Assembly: GCA_037431425.1 (NCBI GenBank)
Contig: GCA_037431425.1_4129.1
Length of the DNA stretch: 64,000 bases
DNA from: a phage
Reading direction: 5' to 3' (one strand)
In this document: positions 13,551 to 63,934 of the stretch, in pieces
How the letters are laid out: every line of letters begins with the position of its first letter
Position numbering within the stretch: the stretch's first letter is position 1
The notes under the pieces: model-generated
Told to the model about the DNA's origin: nothing
The model's database searches: none
What the model saw: the letters and a program-made list of their open reading frames with translations, nothing else
Position numbers and translations under genes: made by a program

Positions 13551-13886
13551 ATGAGGTTTAGTGATCTTACTGAAGAGGCTCCTGGAAAAGATATACGCAA
13601 TATGATTACGACTATTGCGTTGTCTTTAATGTCCACTGGTAGAGAAGATGTGAATGTTCAATCTTTAATTTCTGAAATTAAAAAGAGAACCAATATAGAT
13701 GTTCCATACAATGTGATGATGGATATTTTGAATTCCCTACCTTTTGTACAGGATGCTAATTCAGATATTGTAACTTTTGTTGGAAATTCAGCAGAAGGTT
13801 CAGGTGAATCTGAACAAAATTCGGAAGAGCAAGTTGAAGATTGGGCAACAAAAGCTGCTGTGACAGCAAATAAACAAAAAAACTGA
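13551..13886 (+). CDS. Hypothetical protein
   Basis: 111-aa ORF. Confidence 0.5.
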   Translation: MRFSDLTEEAPGKDIRNMITTIALSLMSTGREDVNVQSLISEIKKRTNIDVPYNVMMDILNSLPFVQDANSDIVTFVGNSAEGSGESEQNSEEQVEDWATKAAVTANKQKN

Positions 13887-13925
13887 AACAAATAAAAATA
13901 TAATGCTATAATTAGGAGTACACGG

Positions 13926-14645
13926 ATGTACACACCACCAATTGTTAGCAGATATACATACGTTGGTTATAATAGAATTGAAGGCGGCCCAGAAGGTCGC
14001 CTTTATTCAACTCCAACAGGTAATCTGCCATCAGTAACAACAATTCTTAGTGCGACCTCGAATGATGAGGGTTTAAAGAAGTGGAGAGAATTCGTTGGTG
14101 AAGAAAAAGCTAATGAAATCACATTAGAAGCATGTACAATTGGTACTTTTATGCATGAGAACTTAGAATTTAGATTAGAAGGTAAACCAGACCATGAAGG
14201 TGGTATGCCAGTTAGAGTTCTAGCACGAAAGATGGCTGATAAGATTCAGGAAGAAGCATGGCCTAGAATCAATGAAGTGTGGGGACAGGAAGTTCCCTTG
14301 TATTATGAAGGTTTGTGGGCAGGTACAACCGACTTAGTAGGTGTTCATGATGGAATTCCAACCATTATGGATTATAAAAATTCTCGTAAGGTTAAGAAGT
14401 GGTCACAAATTGAAAATTATCGTATGCAAATCGCTGCGTATGCATTAGCTCACAATCAAATGTTTGGCACTAATATAGAACGTGGTGTTATTTTCATCTG
14501 TGTAAGAAAAGACCCTAATAATCTACAATATCAAGAGTTTATTATTGAAGGTCAAGACTTCAAAGATGCTGTTAATATGTGGATTGAACGTGTAGAACAA
14601 TACTATATTTTACGTGGAGAAATTGAATCAAATGGAGCAGCATAA
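13926..14645 (+). CDS. PD-(D/E)XK-type nuclease (RecB/Cas4/YqaJ-like fold), putative
   Basis: GTTDLV...IMDYKNSRK consistent with D...(D/E)xK; AGGAG RBS. Confidence 0.5.
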   Translation: MYTPPIVSRYTYVGYNRIEGGPEGRLYSTPTGNLPSVTTILSATSNDEGLKKWREFVGEEKANEITLEACTIGTFMHENLEFRLEGKPDHEGGMPVRVLARKMADKIQEEAWPRINEVWGQEVPLYYEGLWAGTTDLVGVHDGIPTIMDYKNSRKVKKWSQIENYRMQIAAYALAHNQMFGTNIERGVIFICVRKDPNNLQYQEFIIEGQDFKDAVNMWIERVEQYYILRGEIESNGAA

Positions 14646-31129: not shown

Positions 31130-31920
31130 TGCCTAGTAAAAGCAAAAGTCAAGCCAAATTCTTTGCTATCGCAGCACATGATCCAGAATTTGCAAAGAAA
31201 GCGGGAATTTCACAAAGTACTGCTAAAGAATGGAATGCCGCAGATGAAAAGGAAGGAAATCTTAAAAAAAGTTCTAAACTTCCTAATAAGGTAAAAGAAT
31301 CAAGTATGCGTGGTTTGGTAGATATAGTAAAAGATGCAGAACTTGCTGATGATACAAAAGAAGAACCATGTGATATAATTGATGAATCTGATGATATTGA
31401 AAAGTTGGAAGAAATGCCACAACGATTTGATAGTTTTCAAGGTCAAGACCGAGATGAGTTTGTCGATAAAACTGCCAAACTAACTGGTAAACATAACATG
31501 GTTAAGTTCGCAGAACATAAAGACTATGATGTGTATATTAATAAAAACGGTTCTGGATTTATCGCTTATGATAAGTCTGGTAAACAGCTTGCAGTCGTTA
31601 GTGGTCATTTATCTAATGATGCAGTTCTTGGTGTACAAAATGTATTTGAGATTGCAGCCACTGCATCTAAAACTGGCACTAAAGGTATCATCTATAACAT
31701 CTTTATGGATATGGTTGCCCATGGCATTAAAGTGCTAAGCGATAGTTTACACACAGATGATGCAATTAAATTCTGGACGCGATTGATTGGCTCACATCAA
31801 GTTTATGTTGTTGGTGGTGGAGAAGTTCTTTCAAAGGCGAGTCCAGATAAGATTCATAAGTACTGGAGTGATGATGAGTCAAGTCCAAGTGCTGAACTTC
31901 AACTTATGTTAGTGAAATAA
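31129..31920 (+). CDS. Hypothetical protein
   Basis: 263-aa ORF, TAATG overlap with upstream gene, terminator downstream. Confidence 0.5.
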
Positions 31921-35451: not shown

Positions 35452-35480
35452 GGAAGACCCATTGGGTCTTCCTTGTCCTT
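35452..35480 (+). terminator. Rho-independent terminator after topoisomerase genes
   Basis: ggaagaccc / gggtcttcc stem, att loop, T-rich tail. Confidence 0.65.
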
Positions 35481-35482
35481 TA

Positions 35483-35490
35483 TATAAATA
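35483..35490 (+). promoter_or_regulatory. T4-type late promoter motif (TATAAATA)
   Basis: Exact TATAAATA about 40 nt upstream of ATG 35529. Confidence 0.4.
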
Positions 35491-35528
35491 ATCAATAGAT
35501 AATGGTAGCTTGGCTATGGAGAATTACA

Positions 35529-37922
35529 ATGAGAACTTTTACCCCACGTTGGGATATAAAAGCCGATGCTCGATATATACAAGAAGGACAAGACATTCTT
35601 TTGCGTTTGAGTATCAACAAAAATAGCACAACGGATGCTAGTTATGTATTAAATGAAGATGAATACTTAGAGATGATTCTTACAATACAATGCTTGGATA
35701 GTTCAGGTACAGTATTTGAACCAGAATCGCATTATACTTTTTTTGTGGGTAATGATGAAAACAGTTTTATACCCATTTCTGAAGGAACTACTGGAAATAA
35801 ATTTGTAAATGGAAAACATAAATGTAAAATTAGTAAAACACAATTTAACTTATCAGGCAGTTCTAATAGTGAAGATGTATATTTTATAAAAATTCATTGT
35901 AAAAATGACGGGACATACAACAATACCGAAATTATCAATTTTTATTTACAGGCAGTAAATGTGATGTATTTTGGTAATATTTCACCGAGTGGTGAGTTGG
36001 GAACAACTGACGCATCAATAACATATGATAGTCAGGAAGTTTGGGTTACACCTGGTGTAGAGATTGGTGATGATAAAAAACCATACTGTATTGGAGATGT
36101 TGATTATGGTTCTAACAGTACATTATTTGTACAAGGATTTGGTAGAAGACGACCTTTTATATTAGGTACTGACATTACGGATGATATTACACCCCGCGTA
36201 TTTTTCCCAGCTTATAGATTGGTTGATATGGATATATCGGAAGTTCCGCAGAATCACATCACAAATGATTATGCCGTTTTTAAACCAGCCCAAACCGTAT
36301 GGCCTATTTCGGGTATAAACAAAGAAGTTAAAGTTAACATTCAAAACAAAAACGGAAGCACAATTGATACTGGAATGATTTTCAACCCAAATGGTCAATT
36401 ACTTCAAACATTTTTGTACGAATCTGAAGCATGTGACACATATTTTAAGGTTGAGATTGTAGACATTTTAAGTACTTATGTAGATGATAGTGAGAGATTT
36501 GCAATAAATCAACGTTACAAAGCATATCAAATGTGGGTATGCCCAGAAGACATAGACACTATATATTCAATCTCTGATAAACCATTACCAAATCATTTGT
36601 ACCAATTAAAAGATAATGTAGTTTATCCATATGTAATTACTGGTGAGTATGACGATGGTACACTTAAGCCGGTATATGATAGTAGTGATTGGCTAGATTT
36701 AGGTTATTACGATCCAACTCTTGGTGAAAATATCATTGGAATGCAAAAAATATTCAGGGTATTAGTTAATGCAGAAGAAGGGAATAACATAAACTTCATA
36801 ACTGAGAGTGACTTAGGAACCATTCATGTAGGGGAATACTTTGGGAATAGCGTCTATCCTAAGATAGAAACTGATAGTAAAAGTCAGGTTTCTTATATAT
36901 TAGATGGTGGTGATGATATTAGAAAATATGGAATGGACTTAACACCAGATGGTTATCTAGTAGGAACTGCATTTGCTAAAAGTATGGATTTTAGTGCTAA
37001 TGATGATATTAAACTTTCATTTTACGTTAAAGCATTCAGTTCTGACGGTGGTGAGGCAAAAAAATTATTTAATCTTAAAATCGTAAGAGGTTTTGGACAA
37101 AATTATTTAAGTGCACATGTTCTACCATCTGTTTCTTTTGAAAGAGATTGGTTTAAATGTATTAGTACTTCATCATTTACTAACCAATTATTTTTTCGTC
37201 AATCCGATGATAGATATGGTCTTCAAAAAGTACCAAAAATGCTATTGAAAGAAAATTTTCTAAGTCAAACGTACCCATACACTAATCTTTCTGATATTAA
37301 GAAAGTATTACGAAAGAGTATTGTTGATACAAATGGAACCACTATTCCGAATGGTAAATTTAAAATGGTAATGGGTAATTATAAATTGTTATCAGCACTT
37401 GACAATCAAGGAAATTTGCAATATGATTTATTGTACCGTGAAGTTTTACCTGAAGGTTCGTTGGTGTCAGTGTCCAAAAATCCACGTCAGTACACACAAA
37501 TTGACAACGGTCTACTGGGTGAACTGTTCGGCTTACGACAAAACATATTCAAAGCAATTGGTGAAGATACAACCAACTTGATCAAAGATCCTACAGATTT
37601 ACAAAACCGTGGTATGTATGTTGATGCTATACCTAGTGTTAGTGAAGAGATGCTTGATACTGTTCCTAGGTTTATGAATCACCCCTATATTGAAAATAAC
37701 CTACAGAAAAAATTCATGCCTATAATTCCAGTTGCATATTGTCTGCCAGGCAAAGGTGAAGCATTTTTCAACACTTTACTACAGAATAATGAACATGGTA
37801 CAATGGTCGGTCTAGAATTTGAAATTACATCGGTGGAGTTTGGGTATTTTTCACATGAATCAGATAATTATGTACCTGATACATTTGTAATTACATTACC
37901 AAACAATAACATAGGAGTTTAA
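35529..37922 (+). CDS. Large hypothetical protein (about 797 aa), possibly virion-associated
   Basis: ATG 35529 with TGGAG RBS; late-promoter-like motif upstream. Confidence 0.55.
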   Translation: MRTFTPRWDIKADARYIQEGQDILLRLSINKNSTTDASYVLNEDEYLEMILTIQCLDSSGTVFEPESHYTFFVGNDENSFIPISEGTTGNKFVNGKHKCKISKTQFNLSGSSNSEDVYFIKIHCKNDGTYNNTEIINFYLQAVNVMYFGNISPSGELGTTDASITYDSQEVWVTPGVEIGDDKKPYCIGDVDYGSNSTLFVQGFGRRRPFILGTDITDDITPRVFFPAYRLVDMDISEVPQNHITNDYAVFKPAQTVWPISGINKEVKVNIQNKNGSTIDTGMIFNPNGQLLQTFLYESEACDTYFKVEIVDILSTYVDDSERFAINQRYKAYQMWVCPEDIDTIYSISDKPLPNHLYQLKDNVVYPYVITGEYDDGTLKPVYDSSDWLDLGYYDPTLGENIIGMQKIFRVLVNAEEGNNINFITESDLGTIHVGEYFGNSVYPKIETDSKSQVSYILDGGDDIRKYGMDLTPDGYLVGTAFAKSMDFSANDDIKLSFYVKAFSSDGGEAKKLFNLKIVRGFGQNYLSAHVLPSVSFERDWFKCISTSSFTNQLFFRQSDDRYGLQKVPKMLLKENFLSQTYPYTNLSDIKKVLRKSIVDTNGTTIPNGKFKMVMGNYKLLSALDNQGNLQYDLLYREVLPEGSLVSVSKNPRQYTQIDNGLLGELFGLRQNIFKAIGEDTTNLIKDPTDLQNRGMYVDAIPSVSEEMLDTVPRFMNHPYIENNLQKKFMPIIPVAYCLPGKGEAFFNTLLQNNEHGTMVGLEFEITSVEFGYFSHESDNYVPDTFVITLPNNNIGV

Positions 37923-37923
37923 T

Positions 37924-38235
37924 ATGTTTAATCCATTTTTTGACCCGTCTGGGATGACGGATAAAGAATTACAGTTAAAAATCAACGAGCAATCATTACG
38001 TTTGACATCTGCACGTGCGGCTGGTATGAGTGATATGATTATTGGTAATATGCAAATGGTGTTAAATCAATGTTATGCTGAACTAGAACTTCGTCAGGGA
38101 CATAAAGAGAAAAATGTTTATGATGAAGAAGACCCGTGTATCTTCGACATGGACTCGTATCTAACTGACAACGAAGAGGCTCAGAAGAAGAAAAATGAAA
38201 GTACAAGGAAACAGATTTATAAGTCCCAATGGTGA
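37924..38235 (+). CDS. Hypothetical protein
   Basis: 103-aa ORF. Confidence 0.5.
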   Translation: MFNPFFDPSGMTDKELQLKINEQSLRLTSARAAGMSDMIIGNMQMVLNQCYAELELRQGHKEKNVYDEEDPCIFDMDSYLTDNEEAQKKKNESTRKQIYKSQW

Positions 38236-38713
38236 TGTGAAATGTAATCTTAATGCAGTTGTTTATGCAATCAACTGTGGTGCAGATATCCAGTACTTAC
38301 AATTACAGGAAATCGATGAACCTGAAAGGTTAAAATTCAATGATAACTGTAAAAAATTTGGTTTAGAGCAACGTATGCTGGATTATACCATTGAACATGA
38401 TAAAAATCATGAACTTTGGCGTTATGATCCAGTATATGATAATATAAATCTACGTGACTTTTTTTTACAAAAGTGTACCTCAGATGAAGCACGAACACGT
38501 GTTGAGTATGAGCTTGAATTATATGAATATTATAATATGACAAAACTATTAAGATGTATGATCTGGCTCGTTGATTACATGGAAGAACATGAAATCTTTT
38601 GGGGTCTAGGGCGTGGAAGCTCTGTTGCATCATATTGTTTATACTTGATTGGATTACATATGGTAGATTCATTGAAGTATGACCTTGATGTGAACGAATT
38701 TTTGAAATGGTAG
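38195..38713 (+). CDS. Hypothetical protein
   Basis: 172-aa ORF; start uncertain (overlaps upstream gene by 41 nt). Confidence 0.45.
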   Translation: MKVQGNRFISPNGDVKCNLNAVVYAINCGADIQYLQLQEIDEPERLKFNDNCKKFGLEQRMLDYTIEHDKNHELWRYDPVYDNINLRDFFLQKCTSDEARTRVEYELELYEYYNMTKLLRCMIWLVDYMEEHEIFWGLGRGSSVASYCLYLIGLHMVDSLKYDLDVNEFLKW

Positions 38714-38755
38714 ATAAACATGTGATATAATGTCTATTGTAGTTATTATATCACA
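38702..38755 (+). promoter_or_regulatory. Sigma70-like promoter inside an 11-bp perfect inverted repeat
   Basis: tgtgatataat (38721-38731) and attatatcaca (38745-38755) separated by 13 nt; the left arm contains TGaTATAAT. Confidence 0.5.
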
Positions 38756-38777
38756 CATAAAATAAAAGGATTTTGAT

Positions 38778-39122
38778 ATGTCTAAACATACAACTTATCG
38801 TGGTACAACAATTGACATGGATATGCTCAAGTACCAAAATCAGCACCAAGTAGCATTGGGTAATGCAAATCTAAATGCACGTGGTGATAAAATTGGCTCA
38901 GGTGGAACAATTATCAAAACTCGTGAAGAGTTACTTCAAGAAAAAGAACGTGAAATGCAAATCCCTGATTATATTCCTGAACATCAACTTCATAGTACTG
39001 AACATAGTTCTGAAGAAGTATGGGATGATGAAAGCTTTGAAGTTATGCCCGAAGTAAAAGAAGTTGAGGTTTCTGAAGAAAAGAAAGCTCCACGTCGAGC
39101 AAGAACTAAAGAACAGGAGTGA
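38778..39122 (+). CDS. Hypothetical protein
   Basis: 114-aa ORF with AAAGGA RBS. Confidence 0.5.
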   Translation: MSKHTTYRGTTIDMDMLKYQNQHQVALGNANLNARGDKIGSGGTIIKTREELLQEKEREMQIPDYIPEHQLHSTEHSSEEVWDDESFEVMPEVKEVEVSEEKKAPRRARTKEQE

Positions 39123-39130
39123 TGTGTCAA

Positions 39131-39457
39131 ATGACTAATAAAGTAATGACTGCATGTAAAGGTAAAGTTCTAGTAACTGATCTGGAACATGGTGAACGTA
39201 AAACGGCAGGTGGAATCGTTTTAACGAACGATGACGGCAAAATCAGGGGTATTCGTTCTCGCTGGGCAAAAGTCTATTCGGTCGGTGAAGACATTACTGA
39301 TATTAAAGAAGGACAATGGATTTTAATCGACCACGGTCGATGGTCAAGAACTATTGAAGTTGATGGTATTGAATTGAACTTAGTTGATTACCCTGCTGCT
39401 GTTAGTTTAGTATCAGATGAAGATCCAAGAACAAAAATGCTAACCTTTGGACGTTAA
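39131..39457 (+). CDS. GroES-like co-chaperonin (T4 gp31 analogue)
   Basis: KGKVLVTDLEHGERKTAGGIVL...KVYSVGEDI parallels the GroES pattern; start chosen at ATG 39131 (AGGAG 11 nt upstream). Confidence 0.6.
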   Translation: MTNKVMTACKGKVLVTDLEHGERKTAGGIVLTNDDGKIRGIRSRWAKVYSVGEDITDIKEGQWILIDHGRWSRTIEVDGIELNLVDYPAAVSLVSDEDPRTKMLTFGR

Positions 39458-39515
39458 CAAAAAAATCAATTGAAGCTCGGATAGAAATCTGGGCTTTTTA
39501 TTTGGACAAAAAATA

Positions 39516-39785
39516 ATGATAACTGATGATGGTAAATTTAGTTTCAAAGATGTAACATTAGTGTCAAAGAATGGAAGATTCATGTTTGAGGATAGAAAAA
39601 ATACCAAATATGTATATGAAGTTTCACATGATATGTTTAAAGTTTTATTAGTTGCTTCAGCACAAGCTGAAAGAACTGGAATTAAAAATAAGGCAAATTC
39701 TTTTAATTTTTTATTAAATCAACTTGAGATGACAGAAGAACTTTTCACGGCTTTATTATATGATTCAGCCGATTGGATTCTATAA
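39516..39785 (+). CDS. Hypothetical protein
   Basis: 89-aa ORF. Confidence 0.45.
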   Translation: MITDDGKFSFKDVTLVSKNGRFMFEDRKNTKYVYEVSHDMFKVLLVASAQAERTGIKNKANSFNFLLNQLEMTEELFTALLYDSADWIL

Positions 39786-39808
39786 CACGTACACAGAAGG
39801 AAATACAC

Positions 39809-40762
39809 ATGACCACACTATGGACTGAAAAATATCGCCCACAAACAATGGAAGATTATGTATCAAAAAATGATGCTCTACGTCAGAAAATGGAAGAATG
39901 GATTAAAACTGGCGACATTCCACATATTGGTTTTTTTGGCCCAGCAGGAACTGGTAAAACATCTGCAATTAAAGTACTTATTAATGGTTTGGTTCAGAAC
40001 GGACACCTCGATCCAAGTGACGTAACCACACTTAATATGTCAGATGAAGGTATTGATGCTGTGCGTGATAAAATCGATGCCGCAGCAAAACTATCATGCT
40101 TTGGTCGATATCGTATTTTTGTTCTTGAAGAAATGGAACAAATGAACCATAAAGCACAAGGTAGCTTGAAGCGTGTTATGGAAGACTATCATGAAAATGC
40201 TCGCTTTATTTTAACAAGTAATGAACCACATAAAATTCAAAAACCTATTATCTCTCGCGTTCAAGTCATTACAATTGAAAAACATGACATGGAACAGTTC
40301 ATGACAAGAATTTATAATATCCTTCTCGCTGAAGGTGTTGATCTGAGTAGTGATGATAGTGTTGAACAAGTTCAAAAGTACATCAATGCTTCATATCCAG
40401 ATTTTCGTAAAACGCTAAACGTATTGCAAAGTTCAGTTGTTGATGGTAAACTAGTCAAACTTGAGGATAGTATTGAAAATTCTGCCGGATATCGCACTGC
40501 AATCATTGATGCGTTGAAGGCAGGAAATATCCGTCAAATGCGAGAGCAAATTGTTCAATCTATTCCTGATGATGAAATGGATGCATTTTTCTCGTACTTG
40601 TACCGAAATGCGGAAATGTTCAGTACTGACGAAATCACACTGATGAAGATTAAAGTTAAAATTCGTGATGCTGTTGTTAAGCAAGCAACTGTATCCGACC
40701 GTGAAATGAATCTTAGTGCATTGTTGTGTGAGATTGATCTAATTTGTTCGGGGAACATGTAA
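39809..40762 (+). CDS. Clamp-loader ATPase (RFC small subunit/T4 gp44-like)
   Basis: Begins MTTLWTEKYRP; Walker A GPAGTGKTS, Walker B VLEEME, sensor-1 LTSNE, SRV(Q) motif. Confidence 0.8.
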   Translation: MTTLWTEKYRPQTMEDYVSKNDALRQKMEEWIKTGDIPHIGFFGPAGTGKTSAIKVLINGLVQNGHLDPSDVTTLNMSDEGIDAVRDKIDAAAKLSCFGRYRIFVLEEMEQMNHKAQGSLKRVMEDYHENARFILTSNEPHKIQKPIISRVQVITIEKHDMEQFMTRIYNILLAEGVDLSSDDSVEQVQKYINASYPDFRKTLNVLQSSVVDGKLVKLEDSIENSAGYRTAIIDALKAGNIRQMREQIVQSIPDDEMDAFFSYLYRNAEMFSTDEITLMKIKVKIRDAVVKQATVSDREMNLSALLCEIDLICSGNM

Positions 40763-41388
40763 TGAAGCCACGTTGTATTGTTTTTGATTGTGACGAAGTT
40801 CTATTGGACCACATCGGTATGCTTTCAGAGTATGTTAAACAAACTTATAACATAACCCCATCAACACCATATCCAACAGAATATGACCTATCAGATTGGT
40901 TGGGTGTTCCTCAAACTGAAGTTAAAAAAATTCTTGAACGTTTCAATCAACAATCGTATTTGTTTGGATTGTTAAAACCTGTTGAACCAAATACTGTTGA
41001 TATTGTTCAAGAATTACGTGACCGTTTTTATAAAGAAAAGTTTGTGGTTCTGACAAAATGTGGTAAGAAAGGATATGGTGAAGTTTTGCGTAATGTGAAT
41101 CTCATGCGAGAATTTGGTGAAAATTGTTTTGATGAGATCATCATCATTGAAATGGATGAATCAAAGAAAAAGGCATTGGAGGATTTACAAGATAAGTACG
41201 ATGTGAAATTGATGATTGATGATTATATCAACAACATTGAAACAGCATTGGAGCTTGGTATTCCTTCAGTTATGATGGGATGCTCACATAATACTGCATA
41301 CAGGAACAGTAGTGATTTTGAATATATCGAGAACTGGACCGAGCTTAGACTGAAAATTTATTCAGTTCTGGGTAAATATTATAAATAA
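40762..41388 (+). CDS. HAD-superfamily phosphatase, likely 5'-deoxynucleotidase
   Basis: N-terminal FDCDEVL (DxDx[TV] motif); ATG overlaps clamp-loader stop (TAATG). Confidence 0.55.
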   Translation: MKPRCIVFDCDEVLLDHIGMLSEYVKQTYNITPSTPYPTEYDLSDWLGVPQTEVKKILERFNQQSYLFGLLKPVEPNTVDIVQELRDRFYKEKFVVLTKCGKKGYGEVLRNVNLMREFGENCFDEIIIIEMDESKKKALEDLQDKYDVKLMIDDYINNIETALELGIPSVMMGCSHNTAYRNSSDFEYIENWTELRLKIYSVLGKYYK

Positions 41389-63613: not shown

Positions 63614-63642
63614 TTGGATAATAACAGATGATGTGATATAAT
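63614..63642 (+). promoter_or_regulatory. Sigma70-type promoter (TTGGAT-17-TATAAT) with gatgtgatataatgt core
   Basis: TTGGAT 63614-63619, TATAAT 63637-63642; core shared with the promoter at 38721. Confidence 0.55.
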
Positions 63643-63724
63643 GTTTTTATCGGCAGATGTTAAAATGCAAACCATTCCTCAATGATGAGGGTTTTTCATT
63701 AAAAAGAAATAAAAGGGTATTAAA

Positions 63725-63934
63725 ATGGCTAAAGAAATTCACGCACAAGTACTAGATATCACCGACTTCGACCGCACTGTGAACTACATTCAATTCCAGA
63801 TTCATCAAGCTGAAGAAGCTCTTGCTGCATTCCATGGTACTGGTGCAAGGCCAATCCGTTTTGCTCACCTAGTTGCATGGAAGAAAAGTCTACAAGAAGA
63901 ACTGTCTGAAATGCGTAAAGCAAATCGTAAGTAA
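63725..63934 (+). CDS. Small hypothetical protein
   Basis: 69-aa ORF followed by terminator. Confidence 0.45.
   Translation: MAKEIHAQVLDITDFDRTVNYIQFQIHQAEEALAAFHGTGARPIRFAHLVAWKKSLQEELSEMRKANRK

Follow-up and report, generated by a model that had tools for sequence, protein, structure and literature searches.

A predicted extended -10 promoter whose inverted copy is conserved in Asteriusvirus jumbo coliphages, and a putative role as a promoter/stem-loop composite

Why should the -10 element of a predicted phage promoter be followed, a few nucleotides downstream, by its own exact reverse complement? The question was raised by a 64,000-nt stretch of phage DNA, analysed at its full length and referred to below as the window. 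Here TGTGATATAAT at 38721-38731 is followed by its exact reverse complement ATTATATCACA at 38745-38755, with 13 nt between the two. The original prediction had described an 11-bp perfect palindrome with a 13-nt spacer, and this geometry was confirmed. The window belongs to an Asteriusvirus jumbo coliphage: over bases 36500-41000 it shares 98.7% identity with Escherichia phage ph0011 and approximately 88% with 121Q/PBECO4. The palindrome is located in a 64-nt gap, with a gene for a DnaE fragment upstream; downstream comes a 114-aa gene and, after it, one for a GroES-like protein. The ORF list places all of the neighbouring genes on the plus strand. The features of the locus are as follows.

35483..35490, plus strand: match to a T4-type late promoter, TATAAATA, ahead of the virion-protein gene (from the sequence); likely source of read-through transcripts
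38195..38713, plus strand: gene for the 172-aa DnaE-fragment protein (ORF list; Pfam PF07733 DNA_pol3_alpha, E=7e-10; annotated in all relatives examined)
38703..38731, plus strand: 29-nt promoter motif TGAAATGGTAGATAAACATGTGATATAAT (consensus scan, CBB ortholog, relatives)
38721..38736, plus strand: 5' arm of the hairpin; its perfect 11-nt core, 38721-38731, is the extended -10, and its inner extension is imperfect
38737..38739, plus strand: hairpin loop TTG (fold)
38740..38755, plus strand: 3' arm of the hairpin; ATTATATCACA at 38745-38755 is its perfect core, with TTATA-C-C invariant in six Asteriusvirus lineages
38765..38780, plus strand: Shine-Dalgarno (SD) sequence AAAGGA (38765-38770) and ATG (38778-38780) of the 114-aa gene, both beyond the hairpin
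38778..39457, plus strand: downstream unit predicted to be served by the promoter, comprising the 114-aa gene (38778-39122) and the GroES-like co-chaperonin gene (39131-39457) (ORF list, Pfam, relatives' annotations)
39472..39497, plus strand: canonical intrinsic terminator closing the downstream unit (terminator scan; 11-pair stem, then a T-run)
63614..63642, plus strand: second promoter with the ATGTGATATAATGT core, TTGGAT-17-TATAAT with TG; intergenic, with no inverted repeat over its -10

The product of the GroES-like gene matched Pfam PF00166 Cpn10 (E=3e-5), and the Pfam search with the 114-aa protein returned no family. The record of vB_EcoM_G17 carries an annotated terminator at the place homologous to 39472-39497. 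According to the records of the relatives, the locus is syntenic in four genera and forms part of a replication/morphogenesis block.

The promoter and its class

The left arm of the palindrome is a perfect extended -10 element, with TG at 38723-24 and TATAAT at 38726-31. Together with a -35-like TTGAAA at 38702-38707 and an 18-bp spacer, it gave a score of 11/12 with the TG in a sigma70 consensus scan, in agreement with the earlier identification of a promoter -10 element at this site. The -35-like element is contained in the last codons of the DnaE-fragment gene (TTT TTG AAA TGG TAG), the stop codon of which occupies 38711-13.

The overall layout of the site, TGAAATG-N13-TGTGATATAAT, fits a class of 'divergent RpoD-like' promoters, with TGAAAYG at motif positions 1-7 and TGnTATAAT at positions 21-29. 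In phage CBB, 18 such promoters with the consensus TGAAACG-N13-TGnTATAAT have been listed, among them Porf_329 (Buttimer et al. 2017, PMC5259590, Table S6); the class is a MEME prediction, and its members are mostly upstream of replication genes (PMC5259590). Porf_329, which reads TGAAATGGTAAAAAAAATTATGGTATAAT in an identical 29-nt layout, is the positional ortholog of the promoter at 38703-38731. The same position, from the DnaE-fragment gene to the gene preceding the GroES-like gene, is shared by CBB (gp328/gp329), GAP32, fHe-Yen9-03 and the window, and the record of Yersinia phage fHe-Yen9-03 has -35/-10 signals annotated at the corresponding spot.

The orthologous gap was aligned across 20 named relatives, together with IMG/VR and metagenome contigs. 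The motif, comprising TTGAAATGGTAR, an A-rich spacer and TGnTATAAT, was found in 20 or more relatives; it is conserved in Asteriusvirus, Mimasvirus (CBB, GAP32, XbC2) and Eneladusvirus (fHe-Yen9-03), and is weaker in RaK2. No transcript or mapped start-site data for this group of phages were found in the literature. We consider it very probable that the promoter is genuine and orthologous to CBB Porf_329. The existence of a promoter class, as originally proposed, is borne out by the published Porf_329 class and by the -35/-10 annotation in fHe-Yen9-03; the class is thus already described, in the form of predicted promoters.

The core of the promoter had also been said to recur elsewhere without the palindrome. 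A second copy of atgtgatataatgt is indeed present and intergenic, at 63631-63644 rather than at 63629-63642, and the fold of the leader downstream of its promoter was not significant. A third exact TGTGATATAAT was found at 31369, inside a 263-aa ORF. None of the other TGnTATAAT promoters in the window has an inverted repeat over its -10. A wider census covered 205 promoter-like sites in 164 kb, composed of the window and ph0011 positions 1-50 kb and 180-230 kb, or about half of the genome; no other intergenic site in this census combines its -10 with a perfect inverted repeat that overlaps it and reaches 8 bp.

The folding of eight promoters that passed a strict filter (five from the window, three from ph0011 1-50/180-230 kb) was unexceptional, with a mean z of -0.26 and one value below -2; the filter excluded the promoter at 38703-38731 itself. 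Promoter-adjacent structure as a trait of the whole class was ruled out by these folds and by the window's other TGnTATAAT promoters. Separately, two ph0011 promoters have a hairpin at or just after the -10 (record positions 220942, -10.8 kcal/mol, and 227193, -20.8 kcal/mol), and CBB Porf_262 adjoins the terminator Torf261. From these three cases, the order of promoter and then hairpin recurs loosely in this group of phages.

Conservation of the inverted copy

A repeat search lengthened the arms to an imperfect 16 nt (38721-38736 and 38740-38755), 88% complementary and separated by a 3-nt loop. On its own, the 11-bp inverted repeat is near the chance level and only marginally beyond it. For perfect inverted repeats that are 11 bp or longer and have a spacer of 3-20 nt, the window contains five vs 0.81 expected, and 39% of Markov simulations contained one or more; the other repeats of this length in the window include obvious terminators. 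Such numbers favour the reading that the repeat has no function, being a product of chance or a relic, for instance the scar of a recombination between promoter copies, which has persisted through close kinship. Also in its favour, when the sequence downstream of 151 promoter-like sites was shuffled, 8 of 200 trials (4%) placed an inverted repeat of 11 bp or more over at least one -10, and a second, 12-bp repeat lies over a -10-like site at 1336, within coding sequence.

The comparison with relatives tells against a functionless repeat. Six Asteriusvirus lineages were compared (window/ph0011, 121Q/G17, UE-S1, Turkey3/WPEC3/CMSTMSU, Turkey5/JNE01 and A4), and the lineages that share the palindrome are 78-91% identical at the locus. 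The core of the right arm was invariant in 7/10 columns, the loop and inner stem in 2/16, and the stretch directly after the right arm in 1/9. The right-arm core is thus far better conserved than both of its flanks (7/10 vs 3/25 for loop and downstream flank combined; Fisher p=0.0016), which is not what a functionless repeat would lead one to expect.

The pairing was kept in at least eight sequence variants despite differing loop lengths and inner stems, and this also speaks against a relic. The inner stem has been rebuilt from one lineage to the next: it is CUA/UAG in the window, whereas 121Q has GUUUA/UAGGC, Turkey3 has UGUU/GGCG and UE-S1 has a 12+3-bp stem. Within Asteriusvirus the 10-11-nt arms stand 13, 14 or 15 nt apart. 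EJP2 and Erwinia phage Hallingskeid, which are approximately 73% identical to the window at the locus, retain pairing in another register (9 bp with a 5-nt loop in EJP2, and 8 bp with a 6-nt loop in Hallingskeid); between these two phages a U-A pair has changed to U·G with the pairing preserved, a further point against the absence of function.

The conservation has its limits. Changes in the outer stem of A4 and Turkey5/JNE01 break pairs, such that the hairpin is eroded there, and it is weak or absent in RaK2, 7t3, CBB, GAP32 and fHe-Yen9-03, and therefore dispensable in related phages; the erosion in A4 and Turkey5 and the lack of the hairpin in several genera are as a functionless repeat would predict. 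The outer stem shows no genuine covariation of both its sides, because the left arm is frozen by its promoter function, and with the left arm invariant and the inner stems in differing registers the columns cannot be aligned consistently for covariation counting. Scans of IMG/VR and metagenome sequences with GAATTTTTGAAATGGTA returned only CBB/GAP32-like sequences and one 121Q-like sequence, and no new hairpin variants. A 5-bp GGTAT-AAT-RTACC repeat in the Mimasvirus and Eneladusvirus orthologs was judged to be a by-product of the frequent TATAATGTAC context.

Considered together, a repeat without function is unlikely, though it is the alternative to which we give the most room. The palindrome is regarded as a real feature because it is conserved in relatives, not because of the length of the repeat, and the comparison indicates that the inverted copy is under selection, for pairing. 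Loss of the palindrome in close relatives with unchanged expression had been named beforehand as an outcome that would count against the feature; the close relatives were looked at, and the palindrome is conserved there. The same conservation across the Asteriusvirus lineages is at odds with the earlier suggestion that one promoter copy had acquired the symmetry, as the palindrome is not recent.

RNA pairing weighed against DNA-level readings

The sense-strand hairpin of the window (38721-38755) folded at -12.1 kcal/mol, and the hairpin alone gave z=-4.2 vs shuffles; its stem is AU-rich, with 3 G-C pairs among 15. The hairpin was more stable in the plus-strand RNA than in the minus-strand RNA in all ten variants (10/10), examples being -14.9 vs -7.3, -8.2 vs -3.8 and -7.7 vs -2.6 kcal/mol. 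G·U pairs were present in nine of the ten variants, and inner stems carry one to three each. The object under selection is most simply a sense-strand RNA hairpin, because a G·U pair is meaningless in duplex DNA and becomes an A·C mismatch on the opposite strand. A hairpin was one of the two architectures originally offered, and the G·U pairs, the plus-strand stability and the varying spacing all fit it.

The other architecture was an operator: overlapping the promoter, the palindrome would be bound as duplex DNA by a dimeric regulator, from the phage or the host, that controls the promoter. The perfect 11-bp dyad symmetry over the -10 and the conserved right arm are as this reading requires. 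TGTGA/TCACA is the half-site motif of CRP, and it is found within both half-sites here. The distance between half-sites is not constant among the orthologs, however: it is 5-6 nt in EJP2 and Hallingskeid vs 13-15 nt in Asteriusvirus, a variation that a dimer of fixed geometry would not tolerate. CRP itself requires TGTGA-N6-TCACA, whereas the gap is 25 bp in the window and 11-12 bp in EJP2/Hallingskeid. The G·U pairs of the inner stem, which stabilise the plus-strand RNA, would have no meaning for a protein reading duplex DNA, and the site is absent from the other promoters of the class in the 164 kb scanned. CRP, Fur and other dimer operators were thus rejected on the grounds of wrong and variable spacing, and we regard the operator reading, as put forward in the original prediction, as improbable.

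A third possibility is that the right arm acts in the 5'-UTR of RNA made by the promoter itself, pairing for instance with the region around the start codon, and that its complementarity to the -10 is incidental. The predicted fold of promoter-initiated RNA does pair 38747-38753 with 38774-38780, with AUAUCA opposite UGAUAU (38774-38779). This pairing is weak, the entire leader reaching only -6 to -7.4 kcal/mol, and the AUG of the 114-aa gene is predicted to be paired in both RNA forms, that is, in read-through RNA and in promoter-initiated RNA. Moreover, in the Turkey and A4 lineages the partner reads UUAUAUG instead, with no compensating change, and in EJP2 the right arm starts 5 nt past the -10, so that the start site would be within the arm. 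We hold this reading to be very unlikely.

The least probable alternative, to which we attach hardly any weight, is that of face-to-face promoters, in which the inverted copy would be a leftward extended -10, antisense to the DnaE-fragment gene or competing with the rightward promoter: the minus strand does read a perfect TGTGATATAAT in the window, and extended -10 promoters are able to work without a -35, but the minus-strand hexamer is TATAAG in 121Q/G17, TATAAC in Turkey3, Turkey5 and A4, and missing in EJP2/Hallingskeid, the minus-strand -35 position reads AAATCC/AAAATC, and the neighbouring genes are all on the opposite, plus strand. Because the minus-strand hexamer varies in this manner among relatives, the conserved part is the pairing, not a -10. 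The claim that both strands present a TGnTATAAT-like element thus holds for the window, ph0011 and UE-S1, and fails in the other relatives: the critical last T is lost in the 121Q-type and Turkey-type phages, and EJP2 and Hallingskeid have no minus-strand -10 at all. A conserved antisense promoter was rejected since most lineages lack the T at -7 of the minus strand.

Several further candidates were considered for the RNA hairpin itself. A canonical intrinsic terminator was rejected, as the stem is AU-rich, the CACAUAAAAUAAAAGG tail has no U-tract, and the terminator scan did not call the hairpin. The same scan called six clear plus-strand terminators nearby, GC-rich and with T-runs (those at 35452, 39472, 41402 and 43532 among them); because the real terminators of this genome have that form, termination at the hairpin would be non-canonical. 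A sigma-dependent pause element was likewise rejected: the non-template strand has TATTAT at 38744-49, but 121Q has TTATAT/TATATC. A translational mask of the T4 gene e type was rejected because the accessibility of the SD is alike with or without the 5' arm, its predicted unpaired probability being 0.83 in read-through RNA vs 0.81 in promoter-initiated RNA. A search of Rfam 15 found no family at its gathering score, the sole match being mir-6 (20 bits vs a gathering score of 58), which was considered noise.

A putative composite of promoter and stem-loop

The reading that we favour is that of a composite promoter and stem-loop, in which the hairpin would be formed only by read-through RNA and would attenuate, process or stabilise that RNA; we give it about an even chance of being correct. 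A sigma70-type promoter of the TGAAAYG-N13-TGnTATAAT class would drive the 114-aa and GroES-like genes, and its extended -10 would double as the 5' arm of the sense RNA hairpin at 38721-38755. From standard sigma70 geometry, with initiation 7-8 nt past the -10, transcription is expected to start at approximately 38738-38739, inside the hairpin loop. Because a start in the loop leaves only the 3' arm in the RNA, the promoter's own transcripts would be unable to form the hairpin.

Read-through RNA would come from an upstream unit composed of the virion-protein gene, a 103-aa ORF and the DnaE-fragment gene, which probably begins at the late promoter at 35483. A late motif, ATAAATA, has been described for CBB/GAP32 (PMC5259590). 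The terminator scan found no canonical plus-strand terminator between 35473 and 39471; given this and the late motif at 35483, late transcripts should therefore run into the hairpin. The hairpin begins 8 nt after the stop codon of the DnaE-fragment gene, and the SD of the 114-aa gene is 10 nt past the stem. On read-through RNA the hairpin would most likely attenuate elongation, be a site of processing or protect the 3' end of the upstream message, separating the upstream from the downstream unit, and we infer from this arrangement that it would mark the boundary of the two units.

The use of the -10 as one arm is probably an economy. Because the 64-nt gap must fit the promoter, the hairpin and the SD, a complement to a sequence that is already fixed is the cheapest stem. 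A stronger version of the composite reading, which we think doubtful, makes the hairpin a compact temporal insulator that stops, cleaves or caps late read-through RNA only, and does so without a U-tract. The route could be, for instance, an RNA polymerase modified by the phage, or else an RNase of phage or host origin. Should this version be true, the hairpin would give jumbo phages a non-canonical signal for the formation of 3' ends.

The closest precedents are the promoter-early stem-loops (PeSLs) of the T4-type phages RB49/phi1, PST and nt-1 (Arbiol et al. 2010, PMC2839356; Comeau et al. 2014, PMC4122927). The stem-loop of a PeSL is most commonly positioned between the two boxes, -35 and -10, or overlapping the -10; the stems have G-T pairs, and the stem-loop has been taken to attenuate transcription that arrives from upstream (PMC2839356). 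The present locus likewise has an intergenic sigma70-like promoter and, combined with it, a stem-loop in the stretch from the upstream stop codon (38711-13) to the SD/ATG, and its layout is that of the described subclass with a stem-loop over the -10. In contrast, PeSLs are multi-copy cassettes of approximately 100 bp that lie in hyperplastic regions, flank ORFans, mediate recombination and often have polyG/polyC stems, whereas the element described here is single-copy within the 164 kb scanned, AU-rich, situated in a syntenic block and built on another promoter class. An attenuator or terminator role at this locus is putative and rests on the analogy. By that analogy, the element would work like a PeSL, and it is not a member of the PeSL family.

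A second parallel is provided by the T4 genes e, soc, 49 and I-TevI, in which a promoter lies within the DNA encoding the 5' strand of a hairpin (Uzan and Miller 2010, PMC3014915). In T4 only RNA initiated upstream folds, and RNA from the embedded promoter cannot; the same would hold here, given the start site proposed. The T4 hairpin, however, hides the SD/AUG and blocks translation of early read-through RNA, whereas the SD here is predicted to be equally accessible in both forms; and the embedded T4 promoter is late, whereas the promoter here is of the sigma70 type and it is the upstream unit that looks late. Among the orthologous promoters, those of CBB/GAP32 have in common with the window promoter the 29-nt TGAAAYG-N13-TGnTATAAT layout and the position, but have no long inverted repeat, only the 5-bp GGTAT/RTACC match.

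Stem-loops between the cistrons of a polycistronic phage RNA are also a feature of phage T7. Its early mRNA has intercistronic RNase III or stabiliser hairpins, and cleavage leaves a protective 3'-end hairpin on the upstream message. The T7 sites, which contain internal loops, are longer and involve no promoter, whereas the element here is a 16-position stem made from one.

Overall, the palindrome that was originally noticed was confirmed, and of the interpretations attached to it the promoter and the hairpin were supported, while the operator and the two-strand promoter were not. On the sequence comparisons presented here, the feature is genuine and conserved, though a modest one: it adds another case to a design already known, and its function is putative. 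As the promoter class and the architecture both have precedents, no new question is opened by it. If the composite model holds, the element would help in annotating the transcription units of jumbo phages of the RaK2/121Q group, on which little work has been done. In that case, a single 35-nt stretch would launch one transcription unit and mark the end of the previous one, the latter on upstream-derived RNA only, and the promoter/stem-loop design of the T4-type phages would extend to their distant jumbo relatives.

Coding end and other elements in the window

The DnaE-fragment gene ends in the five codons TTT TTG AAA TGG TAR (38699-38713), encoding F, L, K, W and a stop, and their DNA is nearly invariant in orthologs from four genera. 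This near-invariance is consistent with a double constraint, in which the sequence would serve both the protein C-terminus and a -35-like element.

The second TGTGATATAAT promoter is followed by an 82-nt leader (63643-63725) that extends to the gene start at 63725. The leader holds a 5-bp CCUCA/UGAGG hairpin and then GUUUUU; its overall fold was no better than that of shuffled sequences (z = 0.48). A perfect 12-bp inverted repeat, ATAAAATTCAAG ... CTTGAATTTTAT, with a spacer of 20 nt, was identified at 1336-1377, where it overlaps the -10-like TGATAAAAT. Judged from its context, this repeat appears to lie within coding sequence.

Two elements precede a virion-protein gene, the start of which is at 35502 in the ORF list and would lie approximately 27 nt further downstream according to the annotation of the relative vB_EcoM_G17:

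35452-35472, bidirectional GC-rich terminator, GGAAGACCCATTGGGTCTTCC
35483-35490, match to a T4-type late promoter, TATAAATA, 3' of the terminator

Hairpins and leaders at related promoters

Other promoters of the same general type as the one at 38703-38731, in ph0011 and phage CBB, carry strong hairpins that start within the -10 element or 3-4 nt past it:

ph0011 record 220942 (locus 40945 of L067, the 180001-230000 segment), promoter hairpin, -10.8 kcal/mol
ph0011 record 227193 (L067 locus 47193), promoter hairpin, -20.8 kcal/mol
CBB record (L060) 187472-187543, Porf_262 promoter adjoining the terminator Torf261, -20.6 kcal/mol

As positioned, the 5' arm of each of these hairpins would contain the inferred start site.

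The promoter TGAAACA-N13-TGCTATAAT is present both in the window (13884-13960) and in CBB (L060, 217526-217600), with aggagtacaNGGATGTAC downstream of it in each phage. If a short GUAC-containing hairpin formed there, the start codon would lie within its loop or close to it. The region looks like a conserved leader feature belonging to another gene.

A repeated cassette in the ph0011 early region

Outside the window, one cassette recurs in approximately 20 gaps separating small early ORFs of ph0011 (OP557969.1, 1-50000), chiefly at 6-23 kb. Its elements are ordered as AGTAcTTGCAA/TTGACA, 16 nt, GTATAAT, (g/a)ttttaCAT, a GC-rich stem-loop and an SD, and the stem-loop is without a T-run (for example, AGGGGAGAAatgaTTCTCCCC). 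No description of this cassette was found in the literature consulted. The early-gap cassettes look like a family of the PeSL type, the promoter-early stem-loop cassette of T4-type phages, within a jumbo phage.
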